DNA from: Minisyncoccota bacterium
GTDB taxonomy: Bacteria > Patescibacteriota > Minisyncoccia > UBA6257 > GWB1-50-10
DNA: 64,000 bases
Assembly (NCBI GenBank): GCA_020059915.1
Contig: JAGVBB010000003.1
Location: forward strand, 233,625-297,624
Direction: 5' to 3'
Shown here piece after piece: positions 2,553 through 60,931 of this stretch. The notes beneath the pieces are model-generated. The model was not told the origin of the DNA, ran no database searches, and saw only the letters and a list, made by a program, of their open reading frames with translations. The translations under genes and the position numbers were made by a program. Every line of letters begins with the position of its first letter. Position 1 is the first letter of the stretch.

Positions 2553-2553
2553 G

Positions 2554-3893: not shown

Positions 3894-4739
3894 CTATTTT
3901 TTCATTACATCAATAAATCTCTCTGGGTCCACTGATATTCCATGTATCTTTAAAGAAAGGTGGAGATGTGGTCCAAATGAATATCCAGTATTTCCTACAA
4001 AACCAATCTTTTCACCCGCTCTCACCAACTCCCCATCTCCTTTTAATCGCTCATCAAGGTGCATATAAAGCGAAAAAACACCCCTACCATGGTCTATAAT
4101 AATGGTATTTCCATATACCTCATCAAAATAAGATTTTGATACAATTCCTCCAGAAATCGCATACACCTCACTTCCTTTTTTGGCCTTATAATCAATACCC
4201 CAATGCCTAATAATTGTTTTCCCCGTCTTTCTTATCTCCCCATATGGACTTGTAATTTCGTCTGCTGTAAGAAGTGGAGATTGAAATCGTTCATTAAAAT
4301 ATACAAACTCAGTTTTTTTTCCCACCACCTCGTCTATTGCAACCTTCTCTTTAGATAAATTTGAAACCAAAGTATCAGTAGTAAGTGTTGAGCCCTTCGG
4401 AATACCTAAAGAAACAGAGGGAAATTTTTTTGCTCTAATCCATATAGTACGCGTTGCGAGAGATCCATCAGAAAGTATTACATATAAAATATGTTTTTTT
4501 ATCGGTTCGTTCCCAGCGATAGGAATAAGTGCAACAAAATTGCCATTATATGGGAAAAAAGAAACAGATGCATTTTTAAAAAATGCATACGCTACTCCGG
4601 AATTTTCAAGCGTAACCCTAACTACGTCTCCTTGAAAGGGGCTATTTGTTGAAAGAGTGAGCCGTGGTTTTGATGCACCAAAAACAAATATAGGAGAGAA
4701 ACAAATAATACACACAATAAAGATGACTAACTTCTTCAC
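3894..4739 (-). CDS. M23 family metallopeptidase (LytM-like)
   Basis: C-terminal HxxxD ... GxTGxSxGPHLH motif (GNTGYSFGPHLHLSLKIHG), with N-terminal signal peptide. Confidence 0.85.
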   Translation of the reverse strand: MKKLVIFIVCIICFSPIFVFGASKPRLTLSTNSPFQGDVVRVTLENSGVAYAFFKNASVSFFPYNGNFVALIPIAGNEPIKKHILYVILSDGSLATRTIWIRAKKFPSVSLGIPKGSTLTTDTLVSNLSKEKVAIDEVVGKKTEFVYFNERFQSPLLTADEITSPYGEIRKTGKTIIRHWGIDYKAKKGSEVYAISGGIVSKSYFDEVYGNTIIIDHGRGVFSLYMHLDERLKGDGELVRAGEKIGFVGNTGYSFGPHLHLSLKIHGISVDPERFIDVMKK

Positions 4740-11485: not shown

Positions 11486-12721
11486 TTATCTCTCCATCAT
11501 TTTTTTAGCTCGCAATTCTTTGTGATATTTAATAGCAAATCGATGTGCCTCATCGCGAACAAAAATAAGTGTTTTTTCTGAAACTCCCTTCGGGATACTT
11601 CCGATAAACTCGTTTTTGTCTCTTTTTTCCCCTTTTGCAATTCCCACTATAGGAATTGTTATTCCCAATTCCCTTAATGTTTTTATTGTCTCGTTCACCT
11701 GCGGTTTACCCCCGTCAATCAAAATACATTGAGGAAATTCCCACTCAGTGTGCTTAAATCTTCGTAATAAGACTTCGCGTAACATTTTTACATCATTTGG
11801 CCCCTCAACTGTTTTTATTTGAAATTTTTTATACTGACTTTTTACTGGCAACCCATCCACAAATACCACCATACTCCCCACTGCAGAGGTCCCTGAAATA
11901 TTTGAAATATCATAGCCCTCGATTCGCTGTGCCCCAATTTTCAATTTCGAACCTTGCCTACCGGCAGGCAGGTTTTCAATTTTCAATTTATCTTCTGAGA
12001 TAAGAGCGGTGTCGCGAATGTGTGTAAGTGCAAAAATTTGTTTTTTTAATTTATTTGCTAACTCAAATTCCATCTTCTTGCTCGCCTGTCTCATTTCTCT
12101 CTCAAGTTCACCAAGAATAATATCTTTTTTTCCTTCAAAAAATAAGATAAGTTTTCTTATCATTTTTTTATATTCAATCGAATTAATTTCTCCAATACAG
12201 ATTCCTGGACACAGCCCAATCTCATATTCAAAACATGGTTTTTTATATGCACCAATTTTTGCTCCCTCGTGAATATTCCATGGAAAAATCTTTCGCAAAA
12301 TTCGCAATGCTTCCCGAATGCTTGATGCGGAAACATATGGACCAAATACTATTCCATTAATTTTTGAAAGATCCTTTCCGCGAACCAACAAAACACGTGG
12401 GAACAATTCCTTGGTTACTACAACAAACAAGAAACTTGTATCGTCTTTTTCCCGAATATTAAATGGCGATTGATGTTTTTTAATAAGCGCTGATTCTAAT
12501 ATAAGGGCTTCAAGTGCAGAACCTGTTTCTCTTGTTTCAATTAAATGAATTTGTGAAACCATTTTTTCTATACGCGCATCATGTGGACGCAAAAAGTAGC
12601 TTGAAACACGGCGTTTCAAGTTTCCTGCTTTTCCTATATATAAAATCTCCCCATTGGCATTTTTCATAATATAAACGCCGGGATTTTCTGATATATGCTT
12701 GTATAATTCACTCTTCACCAT
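11486..12721 (-). CDS. uvrC: excinuclease ABC subunit C (short form lacking C-terminal HhH)
   Basis: GIY-YIG N-terminus (YIMKNANGEILYIGKAGNLKRRVSSYF), UVR domain, and UvrC RNaseH-like endonuclease domain (IEGYDISNISGTSAVGSMVVF); 411 aa. Confidence 0.85.
   Translation of the reverse strand: MVKSELYKHISENPGVYIMKNANGEILYIGKAGNLKRRVSSYFLRPHDARIEKMVSQIHLIETRETGSALEALILESALIKKHQSPFNIREKDDTSFLFVVVTKELFPRVLLVRGKDLSKINGIVFGPYVSASSIREALRILRKIFPWNIHEGAKIGAYKKPCFEYEIGLCPGICIGEINSIEYKKMIRKLILFFEGKKDIILGELEREMRQASKKMEFELANKLKKQIFALTHIRDTALISEDKLKIENLPAGRQGSKLKIGAQRIEGYDISNISGTSAVGSMVVFVDGLPVKSQYKKFQIKTVEGPNDVKMLREVLLRRFKHTEWEFPQCILIDGGKPQVNETIKTLRELGITIPIVGIAKGEKRDKNEFIGSIPKGVSEKTLIFVRDEAHRFAIKYHKELRAKKMMER
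11932..11993. repeat. core fragment of the palindromic repeat family, in-frame inside uvrC and flanked by 13-nt direct repeats
   Basis: AACCTTGCCTACCGGCAGGCAGGTT (11950-11974) is flanked by caattttcaattt at 11935-11947 and 11977-11989; encodes KLKIE-NLPAGRQGS-KLKIG. Confidence 0.6.
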
Positions 12722-22636: not shown

Positions 22637-24709
22637 TTATTTATCAGAAAAATGTTTTCGTGCTTTTTCTTTTTCCTCTTTATTCTTTTTTGTTGTTTGT
22701 TGTTTGTAGTTGGTGGTAAGTTGTTTTATCTCATCTCGCAGTAATGTTGCCAACTCAAAATTCAATTCTTCCGCTGCCTCTTTCATTTCGCGCTCTTTTT
22801 CTTTCAATAGCTGTTCTATCCCCTTCTTTGTCTTTGGAGCACCACGCAATTCAATCTCTGCAATTTTTTCTGTCGGCAAAATATCTTTTATCTCCTTAAT
22901 AATTGTCCTTGGAGTGACATTATTTTTTTTGTTATATGCTAACTGAATCTTTCTTCTTCTCTCAGTCTCACGAATTGCGCGCTCCAATGATCCAGTAACT
23001 TGATCTGCATACATAATAACCTCACCACGAATATTTCTTGCTGCACGCCCTATTGTTTGAATGAGTGAGGTCTCGCTTCTCAAAAACCCTTCTTTGTCTG
23101 CATCCAAAATTGCAACCAGTTCAACTTCAGGAAGATCAAGCCCTTCTCGAAGAAGGTTTACCCCAACCAAAACATCAATGGTACCTCGTCGTAAGTCAGT
23201 AAGAATCTTTATTCTATCAAGTGTTTTAACATCACTATGAAGGTATGAGACTTTCATCTGCTTTTCCTCCAAGAAATGTGAAAGATCTTCTGCCATACGT
23301 TTGGTAAGTGTTGTTATCAATACACGAGGTTTTATCCCATCGTCATTAGGTTGTCTTTTTTCTATATGACTGATGAGGTCCTGAACCTGCCCACGAGCAG
23401 AACGAATAGTGACCTTTGGGTCTACAAGCCCTGTTGGACGAATAATCTGTTCAACAATCTGCCCCTCTTTCCTAGATTTTTTTCTTTCAAATTCTGCAGG
23501 TGTTGCGGAAACATAAATTGTCTTATCTGTGCGCTGTTCAAATTCCTTAAAATTAAGTGGTCTGTTATCCGCCGCAGATGGGAGACGAAAACCAAACTCA
23601 ATTAATGTTTTTTTGCGAGCGGCATCTCCTGCGTACATCCCTGCTATTTGTGGTACGGTCACGTGCGATTCATCTATTATCGTGATAAAATCTGCCTTTC
23701 CTTTTTTGTCTTTAGGAAAATAATCAAGCAATGTGTCTGGTGGTTCCCCTGATGCACGACCGGAAAGGTGTCGGGAATAGTTTTCTATGCCGTTGCAATA
23801 CCCTATTTCATCAATCATCGCACAATCAAATTTTGTTCTTCGTTCCAATCGTTCTGCTTCCAGTAATTTTCCTTCACGCTCAAATTTTGCAAGTTGTTCC
23901 TTTAATTCTTTCTTTATTTCCTTGATTGCTTTTTTCCTTGTATCCGTTTTTGTAATAAAATGTTTTGCTGGAGGAATAAACACCGCCTTAAGTTCTGGAG
24001 TCTCGCCACGAACAAATCCCTGAACAGGATTTATCTCATAAATTTTCTGAATAATTCCATCATGTATTTCAAATGAATAAATAACCTCCCTATCAGTGGG
24101 CATAATTTCCCATTGATCTCCCCGTACACGGAATGTTCCACGTTTTAAATCGGACGTTGTCCGAGAAAACTGTAATTCCACTAATTGTTTTATCAGCTGA
24201 GTCCTATTTACCGCCCCCCCTTCTTCAAAATGAAAAATATGTTCCTTATATACTTCTGGGGTTCCCAATCCATAAATACAAGATACTGAGGCAACAACAA
24301 TGACATCACGCCGAGTAAGCAGTGCAGTTGTTGCCGCATGACGAAGTTTGTCAATTTCTTCGTTAATCATCGCTTCCTTATCAATATAGGTATCCGATGT
24401 TGGAATATATGCTTCTGGTTGGTAATAGTCATAATAAGAAACAAAATAATGAACCGCGTTATGGGGAAATAATTCTCGAAGCTCATTACATAGCTGTGCG
24501 GCAAGGGTTTTATTGTGTGCAATGACAAGTGCGGGAGTATCAAGCTCCGCAATAACATGCGCAACAGTAAATGTTTTTCCCGATCCGGTAACGCCAAGCA
24601 GTGTCTGTGATTTCATCCCTTTTTTGAAACCAGAAACAAGCGATGTAATCGCCTGTGGCTGGTCCCCCGCGGGCTTGTTATTACTAACTAATTGAAACAG
24701 TTTTGGCAT
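22637..24709 (-). CDS. uvrB: excinuclease ABC subunit B
   Basis: GVTGSGKTFT Walker A, YYDYYQPEAY beta-hairpin motif, helicase motifs and C-terminal UVR domain; 690 aa. Confidence 0.9.
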   Translation of the reverse strand: MPKLFQLVSNNKPAGDQPQAITSLVSGFKKGMKSQTLLGVTGSGKTFTVAHVIAELDTPALVIAHNKTLAAQLCNELRELFPHNAVHYFVSYYDYYQPEAYIPTSDTYIDKEAMINEEIDKLRHAATTALLTRRDVIVVASVSCIYGLGTPEVYKEHIFHFEEGGAVNRTQLIKQLVELQFSRTTSDLKRGTFRVRGDQWEIMPTDREVIYSFEIHDGIIQKIYEINPVQGFVRGETPELKAVFIPPAKHFITKTDTRKKAIKEIKKELKEQLAKFEREGKLLEAERLERRTKFDCAMIDEIGYCNGIENYSRHLSGRASGEPPDTLLDYFPKDKKGKADFITIIDESHVTVPQIAGMYAGDAARKKTLIEFGFRLPSAADNRPLNFKEFEQRTDKTIYVSATPAEFERKKSRKEGQIVEQIIRPTGLVDPKVTIRSARGQVQDLISHIEKRQPNDDGIKPRVLITTLTKRMAEDLSHFLEEKQMKVSYLHSDVKTLDRIKILTDLRRGTIDVLVGVNLLREGLDLPEVELVAILDADKEGFLRSETSLIQTIGRAARNIRGEVIMYADQVTGSLERAIRETERRRKIQLAYNKKNNVTPRTIIKEIKDILPTEKIAEIELRGAPKTKKGIEQLLKEKEREMKEAAEELNFELATLLRDEIKQLTTNYKQQTTKKNKEEKEKARKHFSDK

Positions 24710-32318: not shown

Positions 32319-32328
32319 AAATTCAATG

Positions 32329-32450
32329 TAAAATTCTAATTTCTAAGCCCTAAATTCTAAATAATATCAAAACTCAAATATTCAAATGACTTTTGATAAT
32401 TCTTATTTTGGATTTGTTTAGGGTTTCTATATTAGTGCTTAGGGTTTTTA
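32329..32450. repeat. diverged copy of the palindromic repeat family (lacks the GC-rich core hairpin)
   Basis: ccctaaattctaaataatatcaaaactcaaatatt ... ggatttgtttagggttt ... attagtgcttagggttt aligns with elements at 51921, 52674 and 54303. The tail supplies the stop codon of 32432..32968. Confidence 0.55.
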
Positions 32451-32968
32451 TCTGACTCGTCACAACAGTCAACCATTTTTTCAACTATATCTTCAAATGA
32501 CCACGCGCCCTCTTTCGGTTTTGTATCATGTTTTGAAAGTTGTGAGTCATTAATCTTTTTAATTGAGCTGGTATCAATGAGCTTCAAGCGGATACCAAAG
32601 AACATCGCGTATGATTTATATGCCAAATCAAACATTCTTTTTGCCTCATCACGCCTTCCACTCCCTTCTAATTTTGTCCCCACTTCCATAAGGCGCATTG
32701 ATGTTGCAAGAAGATGCTTTGATATGCACCAAGTCTCTCCCTCGTTTTGAACCATCATCTTCCCCAACAATTCTCTGCGCATTTCCCTCACCTCTTTCAA
32801 TAAATCGAAGTAATCATCCTTTTTTGTCTTCTCTGCGGTAAAAAAGAAATGTTCTTCCAAACTCACCAAGTTCATAATCGCAATAGAAAGATCTTCATCA
32901 AGAGAAAGATCGACATCTCCCTTTTTCTTCATTTCTTCAATTTTTTGTTTAATTTTTTCGAAGTCCAT
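32432..32968 (-). CDS. hypothetical protein (acidic, helical)
   Basis: 178-aa ORF whose last five codons and stop lie inside the repeat element tail. Confidence 0.5.
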   Translation of the reverse strand: MDFEKIKQKIEEMKKKGDVDLSLDEDLSIAIMNLVSLEEHFFFTAEKTKKDDYFDLLKEVREMRRELLGKMMVQNEGETWCISKHLLATSMRLMEVGTKLEGSGRRDEAKRMFDLAYKSYAMFFGIRLKLIDTSSIKKINDSQLSKHDTKPKEGAWSFEDIVEKMVDCCDESDKNPKH

Positions 32969-34290: not shown

Positions 34291-34300
34291 ATTTTAATAA

Positions 34301-34410
34301 ATTCTAATTTCTAAATCCCAAATTCTAAATAATATCAAAACTCAAATATTTAAATTAACTTCTTCAATTCGTGTTTTTTAGGATTTCGATATTAGTGCTT
34401 AGAGTTTATT
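34301..34410. repeat. diverged copy of the palindromic repeat family (lacks the GC-rich core hairpin)
   Basis: Very similar to the copy at 32329-32450. The tail gtttatttaa supplies the stop of the CsaA-like gene. Confidence 0.55.
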
Positions 34411-50647: not shown

Positions 50648-51889
50648 TTATTTATTATTTTTGTAATATGTATCCAGATTCAAACCCTCCCAATCGCTAC
50701 TTGAATAATTAGTCCAATCTTTTGCATCAAATCGTGGAGCAGTTAGACGATAACTTATTTCTAATTTTGAATTTTGAATTTCTAATTTTGAATTAGGAAT
50801 ACCGAATATCACAATCTTTTTGTTTTGTTCGTCTTTTTGATACCATACTTTGCCATCAAAGTTTGGAGTAAGAAGCACAGACACATGCTTCAATCCATTT
50901 TTTTCTACATCAATAGTATGTGCAAATAACCACACATCACTTCCTTTTTCTTTATTGTTTAAATCAATAGTATATGAATATAAATTCCCATTCAAAGTTG
51001 CAACAAGTGTAGCAACGTCACTGAGCTCTTCTTTCACACCACCAACCATTCCAGGGTTGTATGTTGCATATCGCTTCCCTTCTATGGTGTAAACTGGATC
51101 AAATGTCACCCCATCAATCTTGTTTGCAATAATATCTGCCGCCGCTGTTCCCTCATCTGCATAGATTTGTCCAGCAACTTGAAGTTTATATGTTGGATTC
51201 GTTATACCAATACCTACCCTTCCAGAACTATCTACATTTAAACGCCATGCACCAGTATGCCAAAAGCCAAATGCAGAGGTCCCAGTGTTATCTAAGGATC
51301 CTATAAACCTGTCTCCACTCCCGGAAGAGTCTGTAATCCAAATTCCAGCACTTCCATTAGAACCCTGTCTTATTCTAATTCTATCTGCAATATCTAATTT
51401 ATATCCAGGAGTTACTCCAATACCAACACTTCCATCTCCCGCAAAAACAACTGGATATGATGTATTCCCAAACATTCTAACTCCATTCCCTCCAGCAAAT
51501 TGCATTTCAATAAAACCATCGGTTCTGTTTATTTGGCTGGCATTCATGGTAAAGGCGCCACCGGCACCAACCTGAAGAACACCCGCAATAGTCGTGGTTC
51601 CTACAACATATAATGGTGAAGTTGGATTTGTTGTTCCAATACCAACATAGGTTGCCGCTTGTGGATAAATCTTTGTACTTGTTGCAGTCCATCCCCCACC
51701 CCCAATCGCTGATGCGCTATCAAGCGTTGAGCTGTCTGGAAATCGAATAACTTTTCCTGGCGAAAGAATAATATCTTTATCAATAGTAAGTGAGTTCTGT
51801 GCATATACAACGGCAACACCACTCAAGATCACGACACCCAAAAATAAGAGCGCTCCCGAAAACAATTTTTTGCGCAAAAAATGTTTCAT
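50648..51889 (-). CDS. secreted tail-fibre-like repeat protein with a C-terminal domain shared with 55488..59504
   Basis: Likely start MKHFLRKKLF (signal peptide); the ORF track start 51913 uses GTG. Contains VGIGTTNPTSPLYVVG, VGIGVTPGYKLDI and VGIGITNPTYKLQVAG repeats. C-terminal DPVYTIEGKRYATYNPGMVGGVKEE...EKGSDVWLF matches the C-terminus of the 1338-aa protein. Confidence 0.7.
   Translation of the reverse strand: MKHFLRKKLFSGALLFLGVVILSGVAVVYAQNSLTIDKDIILSPGKVIRFPDSSTLDSASAIGGGGWTATSTKIYPQAATYVGIGTTNPTSPLYVVGTTTIAGVLQVGAGGAFTMNASQINRTDGFIEMQFAGGNGVRMFGNTSYPVVFAGDGSVGIGVTPGYKLDIADRIRIRQGSNGSAGIWITDSSGSGDRFIGSLDNTGTSAFGFWHTGAWRLNVDSSGRVGIGITNPTYKLQVAGQIYADEGTAAADIIANKIDGVTFDPVYTIEGKRYATYNPGMVGGVKEELSDVATLVATLNGNLYSYTIDLNNKEKGSDVWLFAHTIDVEKNGLKHVSVLLTPNFDGKVWYQKDEQNKKIVIFGIPNSKLEIQNSKLEISYRLTAPRFDAKDWTNYSSSDWEGLNLDTYYKNNK
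50758..50799. repeat. 21-nt tandem duplication inside the CDS (encodes NSKLEIQ NSKLEIS) with similarity to repeat-element flanks
   Basis: tttctaattttgaatt ttgaa tttctaattttgaatt. Confidence 0.5.
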
Positions 51890-51920: not shown

Positions 51921-52080
51921 AACTCTAATATCTAAAAACTAAATCCTAAACAAACCTGTCTGCCGATAGGTAGATTCAAATGACCAAAACTCAAAATATT
52001 TAGAACATTTGGATTTTGATATTGTTTAGAGCTTAGCCTGCCTGTCCGGTAGGCAGGAATTAGTGCTTAGAGTTTAATAA
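51921..52080. repeat. palindromic IVS-like repeat element, copy 1 (upstream of 50648..51889)
   Basis: aaactctaatatctaaa...caaaactcaaaatatttagaacatttggattttgatattgtttagagcttag CCTGCCTGTCCGGTAGGCAGG aattagtgcttagagtttaataaaa; the core hairpin is at 52037-52057. Confidence 0.8.
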
Positions 52081-52081
52081 A

Positions 52082-52100
52082 AAAGCCCTTTTGGGCTTTT
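52082..52100 (-). terminator. terminator GCCC-AAAA-GGGC plus U-run for the 52101..52658 gene
   Basis: Hairpin at 52085-52096 abuts the stop codon. Confidence 0.7.
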
Positions 52101-52658
52101 TTATTCTACTATCATCTTCCCCACCTCTCCCCTTCCTGGATGTCCAGGAACATCACAATGATATGCATACGTTCCTTTTTTCGTCGGTGCGTTGAACGTA
52201 ATGAGTCTCGCAGGATCACCAGGACCAACACCAACCGCTACTGCAGAAAGTGATGGATCATCAAACATAAATAAGTGAGTTCCACTATCTCCCGCAGAAA
52301 CAAGTAAGTGCGTCACTGCTCCCGCCTTTACTGTAAATTGTGAGGGGGTGATTCCTGTTGCTGAAATTTTTATATCTATCGCTTCTGAAGGAACAGATGC
52401 CTTGTCTGTTATAGGAAGTGATTCTTGTGGTGCCTCTGGTGACATTGGCGCAACATCGTTTCGTGCTGCCTTTCCTTCTGGTGTTACCACAACACCCTCA
52501 ACACTCACCGCACTCGCACCAGGTGCTGCAACATTACTCGGTTTGTATGTCTGCTCTTGTTGCGTTGGCTCGCTGAAACTTCCCGTGATCGCAAGCGCTA
52601 CCACAATGGCAATAACAACAACCGCAAATATAATCCAAATAATTGTTTTCTTTTCCAT
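52101..52658 (-). CDS. membrane-anchored cupredoxin-like (type-1 copper) protein
   Basis: N-terminal TM, Pro/Ser/Glu-rich linker, then a C-terminal beta-sandwich with His (GTHLFMF), YHCDVPGH and GKM, i.e. an H-C-H-M ligand set. Confidence 0.7.
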   Translation of the reverse strand: MEKKTIIWIIFAVVVIAIVVALAITGSFSEPTQQEQTYKPSNVAAPGASAVSVEGVVVTPEGKAARNDVAPMSPEAPQESLPITDKASVPSEAIDIKISATGITPSQFTVKAGAVTHLLVSAGDSGTHLFMFDDPSLSAVAVGVGPGDPARLITFNAPTKKGTYAYHCDVPGHPGRGEVGKMIVE

Positions 52659-52673
52659 AAGTTAATTATAACA

Positions 52674-52818
52674 AAAACTCTAATATCTAAACCCTAAATT
52701 CTAAACAAATTTAAATGACCAAAACTCAAAATATTTAGAACATTTGGATTTTGATATTGTTTAGAGCTTAGACCTGCCTGTCCGGTAGGTAGGAATTCGT
52801 GCTTAGAGTTTAATAAAA
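52674..52818. repeat. palindromic IVS-like repeat element, copy 2 (upstream of 52101..52658)
   Basis: Nearly identical to copy 1. The core at 52773-52793 has one substitution that keeps pairing only as G-U on the plus-strand transcript. Confidence 0.8.
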
Positions 52819-52839
52819 CAAGCCATTAGGCTTGTTTTA
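52819..52839 (-). terminator. terminator CAAGCC-UAAU-GGCUUG plus U-run for 52840..54273
   Basis: Hairpin directly after the stop codon. Confidence 0.7.
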
Positions 52840-54273
52840 TTATCGTTTCATTTTAAAGTCCAATCTCATTGATTTAAGGAACAATGAATACATCGGATTG
52901 GAATCTGGAGTATATTCCATCTTCCAGAATATTCGATTTGCTTCTTGATTCTTGAATGTTATTTCTTCCCCCACATTCACGCGTTGCCAATTGGTGCCAT
53001 CATTAGAAAGGAAAATAGATATATTTCCCGATTTTGTATAATCCGCAAATGTAACTGTTCCTTTTTGAACGGGAAGAATATTGTTGCTGATGTTTGCAGA
53101 GGCAACGGTGTACGATTTTGAATTATCAAATCCATAGTCATAAAAATTCCACGCCTCAACCCCAGTGTCGGCATCTGCATTGCAACGAAGCGCTCTATTT
53201 TCCACAACCCCGTCGCAAACCAATCTGCGAACGTTGCCCAACGAATTCAACGAGCTCATCAAGTTGACTGCCCCCTCAATTGAATTTGTCCCATTCTGAA
53301 ACAATTTTATGAACTTTATTTTCCCCGCTCCCTTGTTCCACACATACCACATTGCATCGTTCCCAAATCCAACTTTTGATATACCGGGGACAAACCCGCC
53401 ATCCATGAACCGCGTATTGAATATATTGGGAATTTCTACGGCACTCCCATCATTCAAAAACTGAAAAGCACGACCCTCATATCCCCCATACACCAACAAC
53501 CACCCACCATCATTTCCCCCAATACCAATCGTCCCAATATATTTTGAATCAAATAATTCTCCACTTCCTTTTATGTTTTTAAAATTGGAACCATCAAATG
53601 CATATACATAGGACTTAAAGATTCCATCTTCCTTGATAACCACCCCAACACGCCACCCTGAATCCAATGCAGAAACGGAAACGGTCATCAATGTTTTTGA
53701 TCTCACCTCTTCAGGGAGTTGTACCTCACTTGATCCTCGATATAGTCCCAACCCTTTTGCTACATAGCATTCTTTTTGTATGCACGCCTCTTCCGCAGAT
53801 ATTTGTTTGAATGCATCTGCTCGTCGCCACTCGTATTTTGGAGGGAGTGTGAACACACTCACTTCTCGATCGTGCCACAAGGTTGTCTGCACCTGATCTA
53901 CCCAGCCAAGCCCAGAAAAGAAGTCATGGAATGTTTGGTAGCTATATTCATCAGAAACTGCTTGCGGACCAAGTCCTGGAATATCAAGTTGGATCAGTGA
54001 TTTGGAAAGTTCTTTCTGTCTCATTTTCGACAATGTCTCTGTGGAGGACGCAATAATTGTCTTTTGTCCCGCAGTTGTCTGATCACCTTTCTGCACACTT
54101 ATAATTGCATTATCAACAATCTTTCTTTCAAGGAAGTTACGAACCGCTGTTGCTGCCAAAAAAAGAAATGTAAAAAAACCGATTGCAGCAATCATCACGC
54201 TGAAAGCGATTCCCAATCCTTCAAATACCTTCTTCCCCTCTTTTGTTATTTTCTTGAACGGCTCATGCTTCAT
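52840..54273 (-). CDS. membrane-anchored extracellular protein, unknown function
   Basis: 477 aa with an N-terminal TM; no family I recognise. Confidence 0.55.
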   Translation of the reverse strand: MKHEPFKKITKEGKKVFEGLGIAFSVMIAAIGFFTFLFLAATAVRNFLERKIVDNAIISVQKGDQTTAGQKTIIASSTETLSKMRQKELSKSLIQLDIPGLGPQAVSDEYSYQTFHDFFSGLGWVDQVQTTLWHDREVSVFTLPPKYEWRRADAFKQISAEEACIQKECYVAKGLGLYRGSSEVQLPEEVRSKTLMTVSVSALDSGWRVGVVIKEDGIFKSYVYAFDGSNFKNIKGSGELFDSKYIGTIGIGGNDGGWLLVYGGYEGRAFQFLNDGSAVEIPNIFNTRFMDGGFVPGISKVGFGNDAMWYVWNKGAGKIKFIKLFQNGTNSIEGAVNLMSSLNSLGNVRRLVCDGVVENRALRCNADADTGVEAWNFYDYGFDNSKSYTVASANISNNILPVQKGTVTFADYTKSGNISIFLSNDGTNWQRVNVGEEITFKNQEANRIFWKMEYTPDSNPMYSLFLKSMRLDFKMKR

Positions 54274-54302
54274 TTCTTTAATTGTAACAAAAACAATTAA
54301 AG

Positions 54303-54448
54303 AAACTCTAATATCTAAACTTTAAATTCTAAACAAATTCAAATAACCAAAACTCAAAATATTTGAAACATTTGGATTTTGATATTGTTTAGGATTTAGA
54401 CCTGCCTGTCCGGTAGGCAGGAATTAGTGCTTAGAGTTTAATAAAAAA
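54303..54448. repeat. palindromic IVS-like repeat element, copy 3 (upstream of 52840..54273)
   Basis: Same architecture as copies 1 and 2; core hairpin at 54401-54421. Confidence 0.8.
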
Positions 54449-54469
54449 TCCGCCTTTCGGCGGTATTTT
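54449..54469 (-). terminator. terminator CCGCC-GAAA-GGCGG plus U-run for the 54470 gene
   Basis: Hairpin abuts the stop codon. Confidence 0.7.
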
Positions 54470-54976
54470 TTATTTGACTATCATCTTCCCCACCTCTCCG
54501 TTATCTTCATGTCCTGGCAAATCACATCTGAATATATATTCTCCAGCTTTGTCTGGTGCTATGAAATTCACCGCACTTGTCTGTCCCGGCCCCGCGTTCA
54601 ATGCTACCGAACCAAGTGATGGATCTTTAAATGCAAATGTGTGTGATTTGTCTGTTGAGGTTATTGCAAGCGTTACCGTCTGTCCCCTGCTTACAGTAAA
54701 TTCACTCGGAGAAAATCCAGATGGGGAAATAGAAAGTTCAATGGTCCCTTCAGGAAGTTTTTCCCGAGCAACAGTGCTTGCCTGCGGAACCTCTGCATTG
54801 TTTGGAACGGGCGCACTCACCACGCCAGGGAGTGACTCCTCCGTATTTGTCACCGTCTCAACAATTTTCTTTGCAGAATCCGCCCCTCCGTTTGAAAACG
54901 CAAGAATAATGATTCCTAGTGCGACCACCACCCCCACAATAATCCAAATATATAATCTCTTTTTATGCTCTTCCAT
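54470..54976 (-). CDS. membrane-anchored cupredoxin-like (type-1 copper) protein, paralog of 52101..52658
   Basis: C-terminal HTFAFKD ... YIFRCDLPGHEDNGEVGKMIVK (H-C-H-M). The likely start MEEHKK is at 54976; the ORF track start 55066 overlaps the upstream gene. Confidence 0.7.
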   Translation of the reverse strand: MEEHKKRLYIWIIVGVVVALGIIILAFSNGGADSAKKIVETVTNTEESLPGVVSAPVPNNAEVPQASTVAREKLPEGTIELSISPSGFSPSEFTVSRGQTVTLAITSTDKSHTFAFKDPSLGSVALNAGPGQTSAVNFIAPDKAGEYIFRCDLPGHEDNGEVGKMIVK

Positions 54977-54991
54977 AATATCATTATACAC

Positions 54992-55480
54992 AAACTCTAA
55001 ATTCGAAAACCTAAACCCTAAACAAATTCTAATATCAAAAAAGATAAAACTATTTTGACTTCTCAATAATAGAACCGAATATCTTCATTAACTCTGTCGC
55101 CTCTTGTTTTAGTTCTTTTTGTTTCTCTTCGTCGTTTTGATTCACAAGAATAAGTGATAACCAATAAACACTTTCTTTTGCTTCTTTTCTACAAATTTTA
55201 ACTCTCATAACAAAATCTTTTTTACTTAGAGATTCGTTGGCTTCAATATAGTTAGCACCAACAGAACCCGCCGAACGAGCAAGCTGTTTTCCATATTCAA
55301 TAGTGGTGACCGATTTTGGAGCTTTATTTATTAAATCACGCACGTTTCGTGCAAAGATAAGCGTTCTCTCTTCAAGATCATATCCACCTTTTCTATTTTG
55401 AAATTCAACCATTTGAATTTTGAGATTGTTTAGAGTTTAGGCCTGCCTGTCCGGTAGGCAGGAATTAGTGCTTAGGGTTT
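54992..55480. mobile_element. copy 4 of the palindromic element, split into left (54992-55043) and right (55413-55480) halves by the embedded four-helix-bundle ORF
   Basis: The left half aaactctaaattcgaaaacctaaaccctaaacaaattctaatatcaaaa and right half ttgaattttgagattgtttagagtttagg CCTGCCTGTCCGGTAGGCAGG aattagtgcttagggttt together reconstitute copies 1-3, with the 363-nt ORF in place of the central loop. Confidence 0.7.
55050..55412 (-). CDS. four-helix-bundle protein (23S rRNA intervening-sequence protein family; same fold family as DGR Avd)
   Basis: 120 aa containing GSVGANYIEANESLSKKDFVMRVKICRKEAKESVYWLSL, characteristic of TIGR02436/PF05635. Confidence 0.75.
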   Translation of the reverse strand: MVEFQNRKGGYDLEERTLIFARNVRDLINKAPKSVTTIEYGKQLARSAGSVGANYIEANESLSKKDFVMRVKICRKEAKESVYWLSLILVNQNDEEKQKELKQEATELMKIFGSIIEKSK

Positions 55481-55487
55481 ACAGTTT

Positions 55488-58400
55488 TTATTTCTCCTTG
55501 AGAATAAACGATGGAGTTTCCTTTTGATCTTTGCTATATGTTGGCCACTCCTTCCAGTCATGGCGGTTACCAATAAGGCGATACGAAAATTCTGTCGGTT
55601 CATCTGCAAAGAATTTAATTGTTTTTCCGCTAATTATGTATCCCACACCAACCGTCGTCCCATACGGAGTTGTAATCGCTTGTACATTATCTTTTCCAAA
55701 ATCAACCGCCTGATACCAAAGCCACAAGTCGGAACCTCGTTCAATATTTGAGAAATCAATGACATATTGATACTCAGTTCCTCCAAATCCTAATTTCGAA
55801 CCTTGCCTACCGCCTGCCTGTCCGGTAGGCAGGGCAGACAGGTTTTGAATTTCTAAACAATTTTCTAAATCAGAATTCTCTAAACTATTTTGAGTTTTGA
55901 TATTTGAATTTTGGCATTGTTTAGAGTTTAGGGTTTCAGATTTAGAGTTTTGAAGAGTGAGTTGGCCTCGTCCAACGAACTCTTCTTTCACTCCTCCCGC
56001 AATTGAGGATGTATATGTTGCATATTTCTTTCCATCAATTTCATACAACGGGTCGATGGTCTGCACGGTAATTTTTCCAATAGAACCAATGTTTCCTCCA
56101 CTCAAAGTTATACTACTTGACGCATTCATCGTAAGATTTCCATTGATCGTCACCTGATTGTTAAACCATGATGTTCCTGATACATACAATCGATGAGTTC
56201 CTGGGTTTGTTGTGCCGACTGCAAGCTGTCCATTCATATAATTGATTCCCGTTCCATCAGATTGCACAGCACCAGCAAATTTTAATGATGTTCCCGTATT
56301 TGCAGGATCAATATAATAGGTGGGGTCGTTGTAGTCATAGTACTTGGTTGCACTGAGTGTATCAGTGAGTTGTCCCTGTCCAATAACATCAAGTTTGAGT
56401 GACGGACCTGCTCCACCAATGATTACTTTTCCTGTAGTGGCTGCAAGGGTTGAAGTACCCGATACATACATGGTGGCAAAGGATGCGGTTGAGGTTCCAC
56501 TTCCACCACTACCGAGAACAGAATCTACATATCCTTTTGTAGCAGCATGACCAGAATCACCTGGTGAACCAACAAAGATTGGATTTTCAAATTTAGCCGT
56601 TCCATTCACGTGAAGTAGATATGCGGGAGTGGTGGTACCGATACCGACATAACCACTTTCTCTAATGGACATTCTTTCTACTAAAGCTCCATCAACTATA
56701 GGATTTCTAACAAAAAACCCTAATCTTTGTTTATTGGTTATAGCATTGTTGTCTTCAATATTTATCCTTTTTATACCAACTGCATCAAAAAGATTAGTTG
56801 TAGCATTATAATAACCCCTAAATATAAGACCGCCATTTTCTCCACCAGTTGCATTTCGTTCTGAAAGATATATCTTTGCGGCATCGGCAGTTGCAGACGA
56901 AATTTCAAGTAACGATCCTGGATTTGTTGTTCCAATACCAACATTGCCATCCCCACTTATACTCATCGCATTCACCCAACTAAATGTCGATCCAGCAGTA
57001 CCGGTTGGTGCAACTTTGAAATCCATTGATCCAGCCGCATCTGAGTTCCAACCAATTCTCCCCGCACCACTAGCCAGAATGCGCTGCCACGCACCACCAC
57101 TATTAAAGAACGCATTGTTAACAATATAAGAATCTGCGGCAGAATCTCTTTGCATAATGTTAACAGGACCAAACATATTAAATTGATATCCTGCGTTTAC
57201 CGTTGAATAACCAGTTGAACCAACATGAAAACGTCCTTGTGGAGAAGCGTTCCCAATACCAGCGCGACCACTTGGAGTAACAGTAAATACCTCTCCACCG
57301 CCCGTTGAAGAATATGCGCGGATTAACAATGCTCCCGCATCACTTGAATAATTTTCTATATTTACAAGTTTTTGAGTTCCCACAGCTGTATTTTTTACTC
57401 TTAATAATTCATTTGTTGATGTGTCATATACTTCAAGTTTTGCGGCGGGGCTGGTTGCCCCAATACCAACCCTTCCATTGCCACCAGATGCGGAGAGAAA
57501 TGCAAAATTATTATTTGAATAAAAATTAGTAATAGCACTTGTTTGATCAATAGCAAATTGTCCAGTTCCATCTCCTATTGTAAAATCATTACCAGCATAG
57601 TTTGCTAGTGCTCCTATTTGTAATTTATTTGCGGGTGCCGTTGTCCCAATACCTACCCTCTCATTCGTCGCGTCAACTTTCAACACATTATTCGTACTTG
57701 CCGCTGCTTCAAATGTATAATTTCCTTTTCCTGCAGTGTATCCAAAGGTTCCTGCAGAGACATTACTTGCCCCCACATTTGTTGTCATTGTTCCCCCCGT
57801 TGTTATATTTCCCGAAACATACGCATTCCCCTGCACATGTAACGCCTGTGTCGGCGTTGATGTTCCAATCGCAACCCAATCGGTTGTGGTGGTGAGTGTC
57901 ACATAGGTCCCCGTTCGCGACCACCCCACAGAATTTCCCCCACCCCCCGCAGTTAACTGGATTGATCCATCAGGAAACTTGAACCCTCCTGTTGTTGACT
58001 CAACCACCCCCGCAACAGAAAGTTTTTGCGCTGGATTTGTAATACCTATCCCAACACTTCCATTAAAATATGATTTTGCAGAGCCAGTTGAATATACCGA
58101 ATAAAAATTATTTCCTCCATTATTTACATTAAGTTCAATACCAGAATTTGCTCCCGTTCCCGTTGATGTATTGGAAACCTTAATGCCAGATGTCTGCCAT
58201 GTTGGAGCACCACTTATATTGATATCAATTCCATAATTAATAACATCAGTTTGTGCATTTGTGGTAATTGCCAATTTTTGATTTGGATTTGTTATTCCAA
58301 TACCAACATTGCCCGTTGGGCTTATTGTCATTCTTTCTACTGGAATATCGTTTCCACTACCCGTTATACCAGTTCCTGATTTTGTAGCAAAAACAAGATA

Positions 58401-59504
58401 ATCCCGTTCGCTTCCAGCAGTATCATTTAATCTTGTACCAATCCATGCTTGTGGTGATCCATTGAATGTCGTTCCACCTTGATAATTTAATAAATGGTTG
58501 AATGCAATGCCTGAATAATAAGATCCGACTGTTGTGGACCTATCATGTAACGGGCCTAATTGTATGTTATATACATTTGAATTTATTGATATGTTTCCAG
58601 TACTCGGTCCCTCAATATGTGCACTTCCATTATATAAATGTAACTTTGCGCTTGGACTAGTTGTCCCAATGCCAACCTTTCCACCAGCCGGGTTTAATAA
58701 AAGTCCGTATTGAGTAGCGGATTGTAAGGTTGTATAACCAGTAGAACCATTATAAAGTTCAAGTGTTGCGTTGTAAGAATTTCCATTTGTCCCCCAACCA
58801 TTCCCTTGTCCAATTTTTCCACCATTCGATAACGCGATATCTCCAAAAACCTCCAATTTTTTACTTGGACTCATCACCCCAATTCCAACATTTCCCGCAA
58901 CATACAATCCGTTTGTTGGTAGCCTCGCAATTGAGGAGGTTCCCACACCAAGTGCGCTTGGAAATGCATAGTTCGTTGATTGGAACGCTCCCCCTGTGAT
59001 ACTCGACGGAGAGAGTTGCCCAACAAACGCCGCCTCGGTTTGTATACTTCCCCCAACATGCAAAGTTGAACTTGCTATCCCCACAGGACCAATACCAATG
59101 TTTCCATTTGGTTCAACAAAAAAACGTAATGCACCAGCAGAAAGTGCTGTTTCATCCCATAACGCCAACCGTCCATTTGGACGAGAATACCACACATATG
59201 TGTGTCCCCCCGTGGTAAGGTTCTTAAGTGCAATACCAGGATCAGATGTTGAAGCAACAGTAAATATTTTTCCAAAGCGCGCATTTGTCGGATCTCCCGT
59301 TGGTGTTGCCAAACTAGTTCCAAAACCAATGTTTCCACTCGCATCAAGCTGTAACACACCACCCCCCTGTCCCGCAGGAAGTGCCGGACCAGTGAACGCA
59401 AAAACAAAACCACCAGCAAACAAACTTGAAGCAAGTGTAAAAACTGTTATTCCAATAATTATGCGTGAGTACTTCAAAATAGTAGTGTAAAGTTCAAACT
59501 TCAA
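55488..59504 (-). CDS. giant secreted tail-fibre-like repeat protein (1338 aa) with an in-frame repeat-element insertion in its C-terminal domain
   Basis: Signal peptide and at least 20 repeats of the G.VGIGTT.P..KL.V type (NVGIGVMSPSKKLEVFG, KVGIGTTSPSAKLHLYNG, RVGIGATSPAAKLEVYD ...). The C-terminal domain is homologous to that of 50648..51889 but interrupted by 55 aa encoded by the repeat element. Confidence 0.75.
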   Translation of the reverse strand: MKFELYTTILKYSRIIIGITVFTLASSLFAGGFVFAFTGPALPAGQGGGVLQLDASGNIGFGTSLATPTGDPTNARFGKIFTVASTSDPGIALKNLTTGGHTYVWYSRPNGRLALWDETALSAGALRFFVEPNGNIGIGPVGIASSTLHVGGSIQTEAAFVGQLSPSSITGGAFQSTNYAFPSALGVGTSSIARLPTNGLYVAGNVGIGVMSPSKKLEVFGDIALSNGGKIGQGNGWGTNGNSYNATLELYNGSTGYTTLQSATQYGLLLNPAGGKVGIGTTSPSAKLHLYNGSAHIEGPSTGNISINSNVYNIQLGPLHDRSTTVGSYYSGIAFNHLLNYQGGTTFNGSPQAWIGTRLNDTAGSERDYLVFATKSGTGITGSGNDIPVERMTISPTGNVGIGITNPNQKLAITTNAQTDVINYGIDINISGAPTWQTSGIKVSNTSTGTGANSGIELNVNNGGNNFYSVYSTGSAKSYFNGSVGIGITNPAQKLSVAGVVESTTGGFKFPDGSIQLTAGGGGNSVGWSRTGTYVTLTTTTDWVAIGTSTPTQALHVQGNAYVSGNITTGGTMTTNVGASNVSAGTFGYTAGKGNYTFEAAASTNNVLKVDATNERVGIGTTAPANKLQIGALANYAGNDFTIGDGTGQFAIDQTSAITNFYSNNNFAFLSASGGNGRVGIGATSPAAKLEVYDTSTNELLRVKNTAVGTQKLVNIENYSSDAGALLIRAYSSTGGGEVFTVTPSGRAGIGNASPQGRFHVGSTGYSTVNAGYQFNMFGPVNIMQRDSAADSYIVNNAFFNSGGAWQRILASGAGRIGWNSDAAGSMDFKVAPTGTAGSTFSWVNAMSISGDGNVGIGTTNPGSLLEISSATADAAKIYLSERNATGGENGGLIFRGYYNATTNLFDAVGIKRINIEDNNAITNKQRLGFFVRNPIVDGALVERMSIRESGYVGIGTTTPAYLLHVNGTAKFENPIFVGSPGDSGHAATKGYVDSVLGSGGSGTSTASFATMYVSGTSTLAATTGKVIIGGAGPSLKLDVIGQGQLTDTLSATKYYDYNDPTYYIDPANTGTSLKFAGAVQSDGTGINYMNGQLAVGTTNPGTHRLYVSGTSWFNNQVTINGNLTMNASSSITLSGGNIGSIGKITVQTIDPLYEIDGKKYATYTSSIAGGVKEEFVGRGQLTLQNSKSETLNSKQCQNSNIKTQNSLENSDLENCLEIQNLSALPTGQAGGRQGSKLGFGGTEYQYVIDFSNIERGSDLWLWYQAVDFGKDNVQAITTPYGTTVGVGYIISGKTIKFFADEPTEFSYRLIGNRHDWKEWPTYSKDQKETPSFILKEK
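55788..55952. repeat. palindromic IVS-like repeat element, copy 5, inserted in-frame within the 55488..59504 CDS
   Basis: Core CCTGCCTGTCCGGTAGGCAGG at 55812-55832 plus the long palindrome. The 165-nt insertion encodes QNSKSETLNSKQCQNSNIKTQNSLENSDLENCLEIQNLSALPTGQAGGRQGSKLGF between conserved domain residues. Confidence 0.75.
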
Positions 59505-59705: not shown

Positions 59706-60299
59706 CTATTTTTGATTCACAATAAGCGTTCCCGTCACCTCTTTCCCACAAATATCTTTACAATAGAATCCATATTTTCCAAACGGATATCCTTGGAATT
59801 GAATCTTCATTGATGTCCCCTTCTCAATGGTTCGGTACACCCCAAAATCAGGGAAGAACACATTGTATTTGGCATCCACTGCAGTGAAGTTGATGTCAAT
59901 CACATCTCCCTCATTCACCACCAAGGTTGATGGAACATATTTCCCTCCCTCACCCTTCATTTCAAATTGTCTGAATGCACTTGGTCCAGTTTCCAAAACA
60001 TTTGTTGGTACTGCAACATCTGTTGGTGTTGATGACGCGCCAACCTCAGGTGTCTTTATGGTTTCATCAACAACAATACGAGTCCCCCCCTCAACGGTGG
60101 GAAGTGCATTCTCCTGTTCTGGACGAAACGTGTCGGTCCCTGGAGTATTCACTCCTGATGTGGTTGTCGTACTGATTGAAACCTCTGGCATCGTGCTCTT
60201 CTTTCCAAACCATCCCTGACTCGAACCTATTGAAAGAATAGCGACAAGCACCACAACAACCGCGACCCCGATGATAACTTTTGTTTGTTTTTGATCCAT
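59706..60299 (-). CDS. membrane-anchored cupredoxin-fold paralog with degenerate metal site (CKDICG, no His/Met ligands)
   Basis: Same architecture as 52101 and 54470 (TM, Pro/Thr-rich linker, beta-sandwich), but the site reads ...YNVFF...FYCKDICGKEVTGTLIV. Confidence 0.6.
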   Translation of the reverse strand: MDQKQTKVIIGVAVVVVLVAILSIGSSQGWFGKKSTMPEVSISTTTTSGVNTPGTDTFRPEQENALPTVEGGTRIVVDETIKTPEVGASSTPTDVAVPTNVLETGPSAFRQFEMKGEGGKYVPSTLVVNEGDVIDINFTAVDAKYNVFFPDFGVYRTIEKGTSMKIQFQGYPFGKYGFYCKDICGKEVTGTLIVNQK

Positions 60300-60406: not shown

Positions 60407-60931
60407 TTACCTTGGTAGTACAATAAACTTCCCGCTTATCTTTTCCCCATTGGGACATTTGTCACGACATTCAAACAAGAACGTTCCCACAGTATCAGGA
60501 ATGAACGTTATCTGTTTTGTTTCTCCTTGTCCGACAAGCGCATAGGTTCCGTATTGCGGAATTGAAAAATCATACTCTCCATCAACTCCCGTTACTTTTA
60601 CTTTCACAAAATCATCTTTTTTTACCGTAAGATTGGTTTCCGAAAATCCATTTTTTGAGATTTGTATCTCATAGACTCCAAATGAACTATTTGATCCGCC
60701 AACAGCATATGTTACTTCTGGTTTTGTTGGTGTGGCATTTTCCGGAACGTCTGGAACAAATTCAACGCGTTGTGTTCCTGTTGCAGAAACATCGTTTGGA
60801 ACTTTTTCATTTTGTATCGGTTCATTGGTTACTTCCTTTTGTTGTGTCACCCCAAAAATTACCACCACAATCACAAATACAACTAATGCTCCAAGAATCA
60901 ACCATTGTTTTTTTGTCATCTGCATTTCCAT
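60407..60931 (-). CDS. membrane-anchored cupredoxin-fold paralog with degenerate metal site (CRDKCPNG)
   Basis: TM, linker, beta-sandwich ending FLFECRDKCPNGEKISGKFIVLPR. Confidence 0.6.
   Translation of the reverse strand: MEMQMTKKQWLILGALVVFVIVVVIFGVTQQKEVTNEPIQNEKVPNDVSATGTQRVEFVPDVPENATPTKPEVTYAVGGSNSSFGVYEIQISKNGFSETNLTVKKDDFVKVKVTGVDGEYDFSIPQYGTYALVGQGETKQITFIPDTVGTFLFECRDKCPNGEKISGKFIVLPR

Follow-up and report, generated by a model that had tools for sequence, protein, structure and literature searches.

A heptamer-armed hairpin cassette with an intervening-sequence protein gene, its ORF-less derivatives and a nested 21-nt mini-hairpin: probable selfish DNA beside surface-protein genes of a Minisyncoccota bacterium

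The 64,000-nt stretch of a Minisyncoccota bacterium analysed here (contig JAGVBB010000003.1, positions 233,625 to 297,624; hereafter the window) contains a family of ~150-bp palindromic repeats upstream of consecutive surface-protein genes. An earlier note, made from the letters alone, had offered three options for them: a miniature inverted-repeat transposable element (MITE), a shared regulatory module or a structured RNA. We conclude, with a probability of roughly 70%, that the repeats are selfish, MITE-like hairpin cassettes of the type known as intervening sequences (IVSs), devoid of an open reading frame (ORF) and hosting a nested mini-element similar to the small dispersed repeats (SDRs) of cyanobacteria. 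The MITE option thus came closest, but the parent is not a transposase-bearing insertion sequence; it is an IVS-type cassette with a gene for an IVS protein (IVP). A full cassette of this kind lies in the window and has both termini in common with three cargo-free repeats (c1-c3), and the 150-bp units are therefore interpreted as its non-autonomous, ORF-less versions.

The full cassette, c4, is a 494-bp element (54988-55481) with the following parts.

54988..55049, plus strand: left arm of c4, the downstream arm in gene orientation, directly upstream of the TATAAT box and ATG of the cupredoxin-168 gene
55050..55412, minus strand: gene for a 120-aa IVP (four-helix bundle), at the apex of c4
55404..55481, plus strand: right arm of c4 (the upstream arm in gene orientation), core (55442-55462) and GCAC tail

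The interval 55413-55480, previously listed as a short copy upstream of a gene at 55050, is really the right arm, core and tail of this element. The 120-aa protein matches PF05635 (23S_rRNA_IVP, E = 3e-14) and TIGR02436 (73 bits), the “S23p” family, as well as PDB entry 2RLD with its five chains (E = 4e-12), and is 95% identical to an ‘S23 ribosomal protein’ of Parcubacteria LiPW_41. The PF05635 family is large, with more than 8000 scored homologues among the matches listed. The predicted RNA fold of the 501-nt c4 region has a 17-bp stem between the arms that encloses the ORF.

The ORF-less elements, and the copies within them of a 21-nt GC-rich mini-hairpin, CCTGCCTGTCCGGTAGGCAGG (the core), are as follows.

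51921..52080, plus strand: c1, ORF-less hairpin element with arms, core and tail (nhmmer E = 7e-39; 93-96% identical to c2 and c3)
51955..51974, plus strand: degenerate second mini-hairpin, CCTGTCTGCCGATAGGTAGA, in the left arm of c1
52037..52057, plus strand: exact copy of the core in c1
52674..52818, plus strand: c2, ORF-less hairpin element upstream of the cupredoxin-185 gene (nhmmer E = 1e-40)
52773..52793, plus strand: core in c2, with one substitution (C18 to T)
54303..54448, plus strand: c3, ORF-less hairpin element upstream of the 477-aa gene
54401..54421, plus strand: exact copy of the core in c3
32325..32452, plus strand: diverged, core-free and ORF-less element, ahead of a thioredoxin-like gene (nhmmer E = 9e-22)
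34295..34405, plus strand: diverged, core-free and ORF-less element; its neighbours are a tRNA-binding-domain gene and a 120-aa ORF (nhmmer E = 7e-17)

The degenerate second core accounts for a 20-nt indel of c1 relative to c2 and c3. Several statements of the earlier note about these copies hold. It had put their identity above 85% in one orientation, and c1-c3 are 92-96% identical over aligned columns in a single orientation; the nested hairpin that it described is also the minimum free energy fold, with a 9-bp outer stem (AAACUCUAA/UUAGAGUUU), a long AT-rich hairpin and a 7-bp GC hairpin; and the C18 to T substitution in the c2 core does leave a G-T pair on the plus strand only. Fold z-scores of c1-c3 range from -3 to -7, c3 reaching -6.0 on the minus and -7.2 on the plus strand. 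The count of four copies was too low. A profile search of the whole window returned c1, c2, c3 and both halves of c4, plus the elements at 32325-32452, 34295-34405 and 55843-55951, and there are extra cores at 55813-55833, 51955-51974 (degenerate) and 11951-11971 (a variant, in uvrC). The stop codon of the ORF upstream of 32325-32452 falls within the tail of that element. Full-length ORF-less hairpins are also found in unrelated metagenome contigs (our loci L157, L179, L183, L205, L226 and L228).

Other heptamer-built repeats were observed in the window. A second family of palindromes (AGTGTAA AGTTCAA ... / ... TTTGCGTTTTGAGATTTG) is present at 59484-59575 and 32976-33070, immediately 5′ of the 1338-aa gene and ORF 32432..32968, with neither core nor ORF. 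A third palindrome (AAATTTCGAATTTCAAGTTTCAAATT ... TTTGAAATTTGTAAATT) occupies 60335-60400 between the cupredoxin-like genes 59706..60299 and 60407..60931, and a tandem array (TTTGTTG x5.4) lies at 22689-22726, near the 3′ end of the minus-strand ORF 22637..24709.

Evidence for exchange comes from Parcubacteria LiPW_41 (GCA_007375535.1, locus L121; below, the sister genome), the closest relative with sequence compared. Its positions 9934-10419 hold a cassette 92% identical to window positions 55480-54992, whereas the flanking genes of the two genomes are 68-77% identical; codon identity among identical amino acids is 82.5% in the IVP gene as against 52-63% in three flanking genes. These sequence comparisons indicate that the cassette is younger than the surrounding host genes, and so moves or is exchanged. 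In the sister genome the IVP-bearing element lies between the cupredoxin-168 gene and a 480-aa gene, which is the orthologous site of the ORF-less c3; the window’s own IVP element sits one intergenic region upstream of the c3 site. The two Parcubacteria genomes carry alternative alleles, one with and one without the ORF, at this single orthologous position. The cassette was either exchanged after the genomes diverged or homogenised among resident hairpins; either way, forms with and without the ORF interconvert at a fixed hairpin. No target duplication was seen between filled and empty sites (sister-genome orthologues and UvrC homologues), and no enzyme binding the terminal repeats of the cassette was found. 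Two other genes of the sister-genome locus are a free-standing GIY-YIG (T5orf172-like) gene at 8899-9213, in the intergenic region that holds the IVP cassette in the window, and a 232-aa gene resembling Y1_Tnp and the REP-associated tyrosine transposases (RAYTs; REP, repetitive extragenic palindrome) at 1131-1829, followed by a GC hairpin and located ~8 kb upstream.

Inverted arrays of 7-nt units, (CTAAAYN)n/(NRTTTAG)n, make up the AT-rich arms; Tandem Repeats Finder recovers the period, which is also visible as autocorrelation peaks at lags 7 and 14. In gene orientation the upstream arm of the full cassette reads ...CTAAGCA CTAATAT CTAAATC CTAAACA AAT... and the complement downstream ...TTTGTTTAGGATTTAGAG.... 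The same flanks surround IVP genes of Azambacteria, Falkowbacteria and WOR-3 (proteins 64-68% identical to the window protein), with ...AAACTCTAAAYNCTAAACAAAT.. before the ATG and ..TTTGAATTTGTTTAGGATTTAGAGTTT.. downstream. The genes next to IVP genes in other phyla are varied (LeuRS, invasin-like and other unrelated genes). A protein-anchored metagenome scan confirmed IVP relatives in at least 593 of 600 candidate stretches; 80 loci were kept, giving 71 non-redundant loci with flanks for arm statistics, all picked by similarity (59-69% identity) to the window protein, and 70 of these were folded. CTAAA upstream goes with TTTAG downstream at 35 loci and CGAAA with TTTCG at 17, with three mixed cases (Fisher p = 4e-11); the arms therefore covary, staying complementary. 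The median number of cross-arm base pairs was 36, compared with 20.5 when the downstream arm was shuffled (70 loci). Duplex energies (-33 kcal/mol for arms, -29 for distal segments) were uninformative, and we used flavour covariation and pair counts instead. Within one PF05635 subfamily, heptamer arms are conserved beside the IVP genes of different phyla and covary so as to stay complementary. The earlier note had suggested covariation analysis of the copies as a check for RNA structure; the arms do covary, but DNA-level recognition of inverted repeats would produce the same pattern. The GCAC heptamer of the window tail (CTAAGCACTAA) is found again in metagenome IVP arms. We found no description of 7-nt-periodic arms conserved across phyla in the literature.

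At many loci the IVP ORF begins directly at the end of the arm, without a leader. GC-rich mini-hairpins unrelated to the core (e.g. GTCCCTCGGCTTCGCTCGGGATGGTGAGCGCGTCGAACCA and CCCGATTTCATCGAGGATCCTCGACAAAGTCGGGA) are nested in the arms of two IVP loci, L151 (downstream arm) and L160 (upstream arm), and the arms appear to serve in general as landing sites for several mini-hairpin families.

The GC hairpin, which had been taken for the core of the element itself, is an independent 21-nt insert. It is absent from the diverged 32-kb and 34-kb copies and from the sister-genome orthologue of c2, which reads cactaattcc followed directly by caaactctaaac. The window has five copies within three mismatches, against none in 100 shuffles. 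None of the 71 IVP loci contains the core, and among the matches listed only 2 of 119 core loci contain an IVP gene, neither adjoining the core; there is therefore no general core-IVP link. A scan for exact matches in one genome per GTDB species returned the core in at least 119 genome stretches from at least seven phyla, including six isolates and one complete chromosome (taxonomy of metagenome-assembled genomes, MAGs, from record titles). The listed stretches are distributed as follows.

Bacteroidota: at least 74
Patescibacteria: at least 23
Proteobacteria sensu lato: at least 7
Nitrospirota: at least 6
Ignavibacteriota: at least 3
Chloroflexota: at least 2
Elusimicrobiota: at least 1
Unclassified: at least 3

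The exact core is also present in 15 viral stretches of IMG/VR, one 29-kb viral contig holding at least six copies. Among the papers searched, none contained the core sequence or its peptides. A sequencing-adapter or assembly artefact was rejected as the source of the core on the strength of the six isolates, the complete chromosome, the kept reading frames, the frame preference and the nesting in heptamer arrays.

Core flanks are unrelated between genomes, but among the matches listed, to which all core statistics in this and the next paragraph refer, three contexts recur: heptamer arrays, hairpin apices and the core’s own copies. Heptamer neighbours in register accompany 11% of copies versus 1% of control positions, the arrays including (gattgcg), (tcgtgag), (ttggtcg) and (ttctggg). 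The core recurs at the apex of a local hairpin or terminator, and a flank hairpin energy of -10 kcal/mol or lower was calculated for 31% of copies versus 11% of controls (Mann-Whitney U p = 7e-6); this is a looser hairpin propensity only, Watson-Crick pairing at flank positions 1-6 not being enriched. Nesting in the loop of another copy was seen at L010, L011, L068, L094, L096, L127 and window 55801-55842. The core is preceded by G in 71% and by A in 24% of copies and is rarely followed by A. Judged from these sequence patterns, the core behaves as a very small mobile or copy-pasted element in a 7-nt register (3 x 7). In a Cyclobacteriaceae MAG (L082 4790-5150 and L107 4195-4545), the core forms part of a ~60-nt repeat, ..ATGTGTGCATARRCAAGGGGCTTAAG, core, CCCRTGSCAATTGA.., which occurs as inverted pairs ~330 nt apart at several loci.

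With ORFs in core loci approximated from stop to stop, 48% of core copies lie in ORFs of at least 200 aa, compared with 75% of random positions. The top strand of the core is on the template strand in 59 of the 70 in-ORF copies (p = 1.4e-5 against the 60:40 ratio expected from stop codons alone), and 40 of the 70 are read in the LPTGQAG frame. Several hosts were confirmed by Pfam. One Paceibacterota MAG has the core in both ArgRS and GatB, a Saccharibacteria MAG in a Mur ligase, the isolate Terrimonas sp. R1 in a ~1100-aa Mo-oxidoreductase/4Fe-4S protein, and a phage in a glucosaminidase. Copies and variants cluster at positions 2744-3800 of L127 (IMGVR_UViG_3300038551_000082), the viral contig with at least six copies overall: three exact cores, one of them nested, and variants (CCTGTCTGCCGACAGGCAGG) are in the N-terminal part of the 339-aa glucosaminidase gene (2955..3974), and a fourth exact core, nested, lies at 2768-2788, just outside it, in the neighbouring ORF 2371..2958.

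Related insertions inside genes of the window are as follows.

55801..55842, plus strand: nested mini-hairpins in the 1338-aa ORF, with an exact core (55813-55833) in the loop of an inverted variant copy
55843..55951, plus strand: arm-derived heptamer palindrome (rearranged arms), in frame in the 1338-aa ORF
50757..50800, minus strand: in-frame heptamer/21-nt array (IQNSKLE x2) in the 413-aa ORF, an arm-like remnant
11937..11989, minus strand: variant mini-hairpin (11951-11971) with flanking direct heptamers in uvrC

The arrangement at 55801-55842 is CCTTGCCTACCG, core, GCAGACAGG, translated as LPTGQAGGRQGSKL. Compared with its 413-aa paralogue, the 1338-aa protein has a 54-aa in-frame insertion formed by arms and the two nested cores; compared with the sister-genome orthologue, where a different and shorter heptamer-coded insert occupies the same site, the excess is 39 aa. 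The uvrC variant reads CCTGCCTGCCGGTAGGCAAGG as reverse complement (coding strand) and encodes the in-frame linker peptide KLKIENLPAGRQGSKLKIG; the window UvrC has domains PF01541, PF02151 and PF08459, and homologues 88% and 77% identical to it lack exactly these 7 residues. In homologues P0123, P0130, P0160 and P0193, from different Parcubacteria lineages, the same linker spot holds other short, GC-hairpin-like peptides (SPRLTRLGRE, PACAGR, LPAGRRG and LPAGRQG), which lie within heptamer-coded FEIRNSKLEIS / FQFSIFNFQ stretches. This position looks like a recurrent indel hot spot.

The genes around the element cluster are all on the minus strand.

59504..55488, minus strand: 1338-aa repeat protein
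55412..55050, minus strand: 120-aa ORF (the IVP gene)
54976..54470, minus strand: cupredoxin-168 (Pfam)
54273..52840, minus strand: 477-aa protein
52658..52101, minus strand: cupredoxin-185 (Pfam)
51889..50648, minus strand: 413-aa protein
52665..52673, minus strand: -10 box TGTTATAAT, ending 6 nt before ATG 52658 and abutting the end of c2, outside the element (read directly)
54281..54289, minus strand: -10 box TGTTACAAT, ending 7 nt before ATG 54273 (read directly)
54450..54463: bidirectional intrinsic terminator of the cupredoxin-168 gene, directly before c3
52084-52100 and 52811-52842: analogous terminators

On direct reading, each of c1-c3 ends beside a -10 box 6, 7 or 12 nt from an ATG, c1 being flanked by the cupredoxin-185 terminator and the promoter for the 413-aa protein. 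The extended -10 boxes reported 6-7 nt from two starts (TGTTATAAT before ATG 52658, TGTTACAAT before ATG 54273) are confirmed; the third, TGTTATACT, had been placed 14 nt upstream and is actually 12 nt from ATG 51889. Placement of every copy between an upstream terminator and the next start applies to c1-c3 but not to c4, which no terminator precedes and which is therefore either co-transcribed or has its own promoter. Boxes of this kind, often TGnTAnAAT, end 6-7 nt short of the ATG at 52659-52673, 54274-54289, 54977-54988 and 32319-32335, with the same layout in the sister genome at 10425-10449 and 12020-12036. No Shine-Dalgarno sequence is present at these window and sister-genome starts, and the conserved near-ATG box suggests that leaderless mRNAs are the local norm. 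The large proteins beside the elements (window 55488-59504 and 50648-51889; sister genome 3824-8863) contain repeated ‘(G)xVGIGTTNPxxKLxV’ units and a common conserved C-terminal domain, with no Pfam match; a Peptidase_S74 gene near them in the sister genome hints that they are tail-fibre-like surface proteins.

c1-c3 and the 32-kb and 34-kb copies consist of the cassette arms with a short closing loop, and we propose that the IVP gene enters or leaves at the hairpin apex. Spread could occur by insertion into, or recombination between, hairpin loops, much as IVSs replace rRNA tetraloops. Where transcribed, the arms might form a long duplex cut by RNase III, as in rRNA IVSs, which by analogy would make the element tolerable in transcribed DNA. 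As a selfish unit, the hairpin would persist at sites able to accommodate a long stem-loop, namely behind terminators, ahead of promoters and within protein linkers. The core may be copied into single-stranded or hairpin DNA in a strand-specific manner and without duplication. Most window copies are probably passengers in the neutral gap between terminator and -10 box, providing at most A/T-rich upstream DNA. A bolder, two-part proposal is tentative, and we put it at somewhat less than even odds. It holds that the core CCTGCCTGTCCGGTAGGCAGG is an active, pan-bacterial and phage-borne mobile unit, among the smallest known, and that IVP genes are cargo of a general hairpin-apex-invading cassette. 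Horizontally transferred machinery would then write the core into hairpin loops and heptamer arrays, strand-specifically and without target duplication, its targets including essential genes in which it is read as LPTGQAG. The cassette would be defined by its conserved 7-nt-periodic arms, with rRNA IVSs as only the best-known special case, and the IVP, a homologue of the accessory protein Avd of diversity-generating retroelements, might help to make or move heptamer-phased DNA.

Several observations weigh against the selfish-cassette interpretation. No transposase, recombinase or target-site duplication was found, mobility being deduced from comparative patterns alone, and the allelism could come from recombination between resident hairpins and not from transposition. 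The six window copies all point the same way and adjoin promoters, a pattern that does not follow from a purely selfish model; the genes, however, are co-directional. The in-ORF copy keeps the reading frame, so efficient cleavage there is impossible. Arm mismatches have no sense-strand G:U bias (91 versus 98), and RNA-level pairing and RNase III processing therefore rest on analogy with rRNA IVSs. The arm rule holds for one PF05635 subfamily only, the loci having been selected by similarity. Finally, a search of viral contigs for variants at stem pair 4/18 returned canonical copies only, leaving action of the core through its hairpin without support from covariation.

Among the alternatives, one concerns the core alone: it could be a unit of the REP kind that a Y1 (HUH) transposase of the RAYT type moves in single-stranded form. 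It is a short GC-rich palindrome with GTAG and has a strong strand bias relative to genes, and neither its nested nor its empty sites have a target duplication; genes, and repair genes in particular, are known to harbour REPs (PMC3733652), and the window uvrC carries such a hairpin; and the sister genome has its Y1_Tnp gene ~8 kb from the cluster. However, the GTAG is internal and not at the hairpin foot, and REP families are lineage-specific and high-copy whereas the core is identical across phyla and low-copy. A phmmer search with the sister-genome Y1_Tnp protein found no homologue in the window or the 119 listed loci; in the sequences compared, the one RAYT-like candidate is that sister-genome gene, whose product is sub-threshold for REP_Tyr_transpos (33 bits, cutoff 80) and whose flanks are free of the core. 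We consider this origin unlikely. The shared cis-regulatory module of the earlier note, in which the repeats would act as UP-element, -35 surrogate or operators of a heptamer-binding regulator co-ordinating cupredoxin and surface-protein genes, is improbable to a slightly greater degree. Its support is positional: every intergenic copy in the window and the sister genome ends 0-3 nt from a -10 box that is itself 6-12 nt from the ATG, the copies are all oriented alike with respect to the gene that follows, and the terminal heptamers give TTTAGA motifs near -35. Yet IVP genes with unrelated neighbours in other phyla have these arms as well, copies also occur inside ORFs, diverged copies precede unrelated genes (thioredoxin-like and 120-aa ORF), a consensus sigma-70 scan gave no -35/-10 pair using the elements, and the presence of core and ORF differs at orthologous sites where the downstream gene is retained.

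An element selected at the RNA level, whether a transcribed intercistronic or 5′-untranslated RNase III site, an insulator or a small RNA, is less probable again. The strong predicted folds (on both strands), the arm covariation, the lack of a terminator upstream of c4 and, by analogy, the cutting of rRNA IVSs by RNase III (PMC4990558) would suit it. On the other hand, c1-c3 lie after terminators and before the -10 box, mostly outside predicted transcripts; arm mismatches have the unbiased G:U counts given above; inverted repeats that are recognised as DNA would be expected to covary just as well; and no Rfam family matches. Rfam searches of the whole window (gathering threshold) and of 51800-56000 (E-value threshold) gave chance matches only, the best being NrrF at 26.9 bits against a cutoff of 60, and no tRNA, tmRNA or rRNA was found in the window. 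Local segmental duplication of one intergenic region together with a cupredoxin gene, which the note had named as the outcome that would count against its family, is barely credible. There are two cupredoxin paralogues with 3′ ends ~70% identical, each preceded and followed by a copy, but the elements are 92-96% identical as against ~70% for the duplicated genes, and copies at 32 and 34 kb, 18-20 kb away by unrelated genes, inside ORFs and in unrelated metagenome contigs contradict a purely local origin.

If the selfish-cassette reading is correct, an apparent surface-protein regulatory motif is re-filed as selfish DNA, and the PF05635 “23S rRNA IVS protein” family gains a testable genomic unit outside rRNA, consisting of gene, heptamer arms and ORF-less derivatives. 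A specialist would probably be surprised by the occurrence of the mini-hairpin in so many phyla and by the conservation of heptamer arms around IVP genes. A core that is letter-identical across phyla and phages, and in frame in an aminoacyl-tRNA synthetase, GatB, Mur ligase and UvrC, implies either a new mobilisation mechanism or a sequence-specific function. It would extend the cyanobacterial SDR/heptamer-repeat phenomenon to much of the bacterial domain. Inserts of this kind affect gene calling, protein alignments and quality checks of MAGs, and mark recent horizontal exchange; the machinery behind the core, if found, might serve as a highly compact tool for inserting DNA.

Among known systems, the core comes nearest to the SDRs in heptamer arrays of Nostocaceae. 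Elhai et al., in 2008 (Genome Res 18:1484; cited in PMC5861425), reportedly described SDRs of 21-27 nt and heptamer arrays termed STRR; the SDRs are said to have hairpin potential, to be embedded in heptamer repeats or mini-transposons, to insert into themselves and to be mobile by inference. The core likewise is 21 nt long, lies in heptamer arrays, with the window arms as ‘mini-transposon’ context, nests in its own copies and is present or absent between related genomes. Unlike SDRs, it is identical in Bacteroidota, Patescibacteria, Nitrospirota, Chloroflexota, Proteobacteria and phages, and has a strong frame and strand preference in ORFs. Related heptamer elements, both within genes and between them, have been noted in Geobacter (PMC2700814).

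MITEs, the Correia elements of Neisseria and Rickettsia palindromic elements (RPEs) are non-autonomous, multi-copy palindromes of ~100-160 bp beside promoters and terminators. The window elements are also palindromic, ORF-less, multi-copy and adjacent to promoters or terminators, with in-frame ORF insertion like that of RPEs, whose insertion within genes is mentioned in PMC3733652. They differ from MITEs in that the parent has a four-helix-bundle protein and not a transposase as cargo, and in that neither TA nor any other target duplication was seen. REP and REPIN elements resemble the core in being ~20-40-nt palindromes with a GTAG, in lying occasionally within genes and in forming doublets and nested copies (PMC3733652, PMC3116915). 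By contrast, the GTAG of the core is at positions 13-16 (loop and 3′ arm) and not at the stem-loop end by which REPs are defined (PMC3733652), and it is found in at least seven phyla with 48% of listed copies in ORFs, whereas REPs are lineage-specific, high-copy and mostly extragenic.

The system nearest to the cassette is the rRNA IVS, with an ORF in Leptospira, Coxiella, Brucella and the candidate phyla radiation (CPR), or without one in Salmonella and Yersinia (PMC4990558, PMC11270868). These IVSs are selfish stem-loops with inverted-repeat borders that are cut by RNase III, replace helix tetraloops and may carry S23p (PMC4990558); the IVP family is encoded in 23S rRNA IVSs of Leptospira, Coxiella and Brucella (PMC4990558, PMC11270868), and IVP ORFs are also found in CPR rRNA inserts (PMC11270868). 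Unlike them, the window copies are not in rRNA but between protein genes and inside ORFs, where they are translated; their arms are 7-nt-periodic and conserved across phyla, and RNase III excision would apply here by analogy. In both, a stem-loop with terminal inverted repeats has an optional ~120-aa PF05635 ORF at its apex and ORF-less forms of ~100-150 nt, takes the place of a small hairpin loop and has a sporadic, horizontally transferred distribution. IVP genes are also interspersed in cas operons (PMC3936711), which fits their interpretation as cargo of selfish cassettes.

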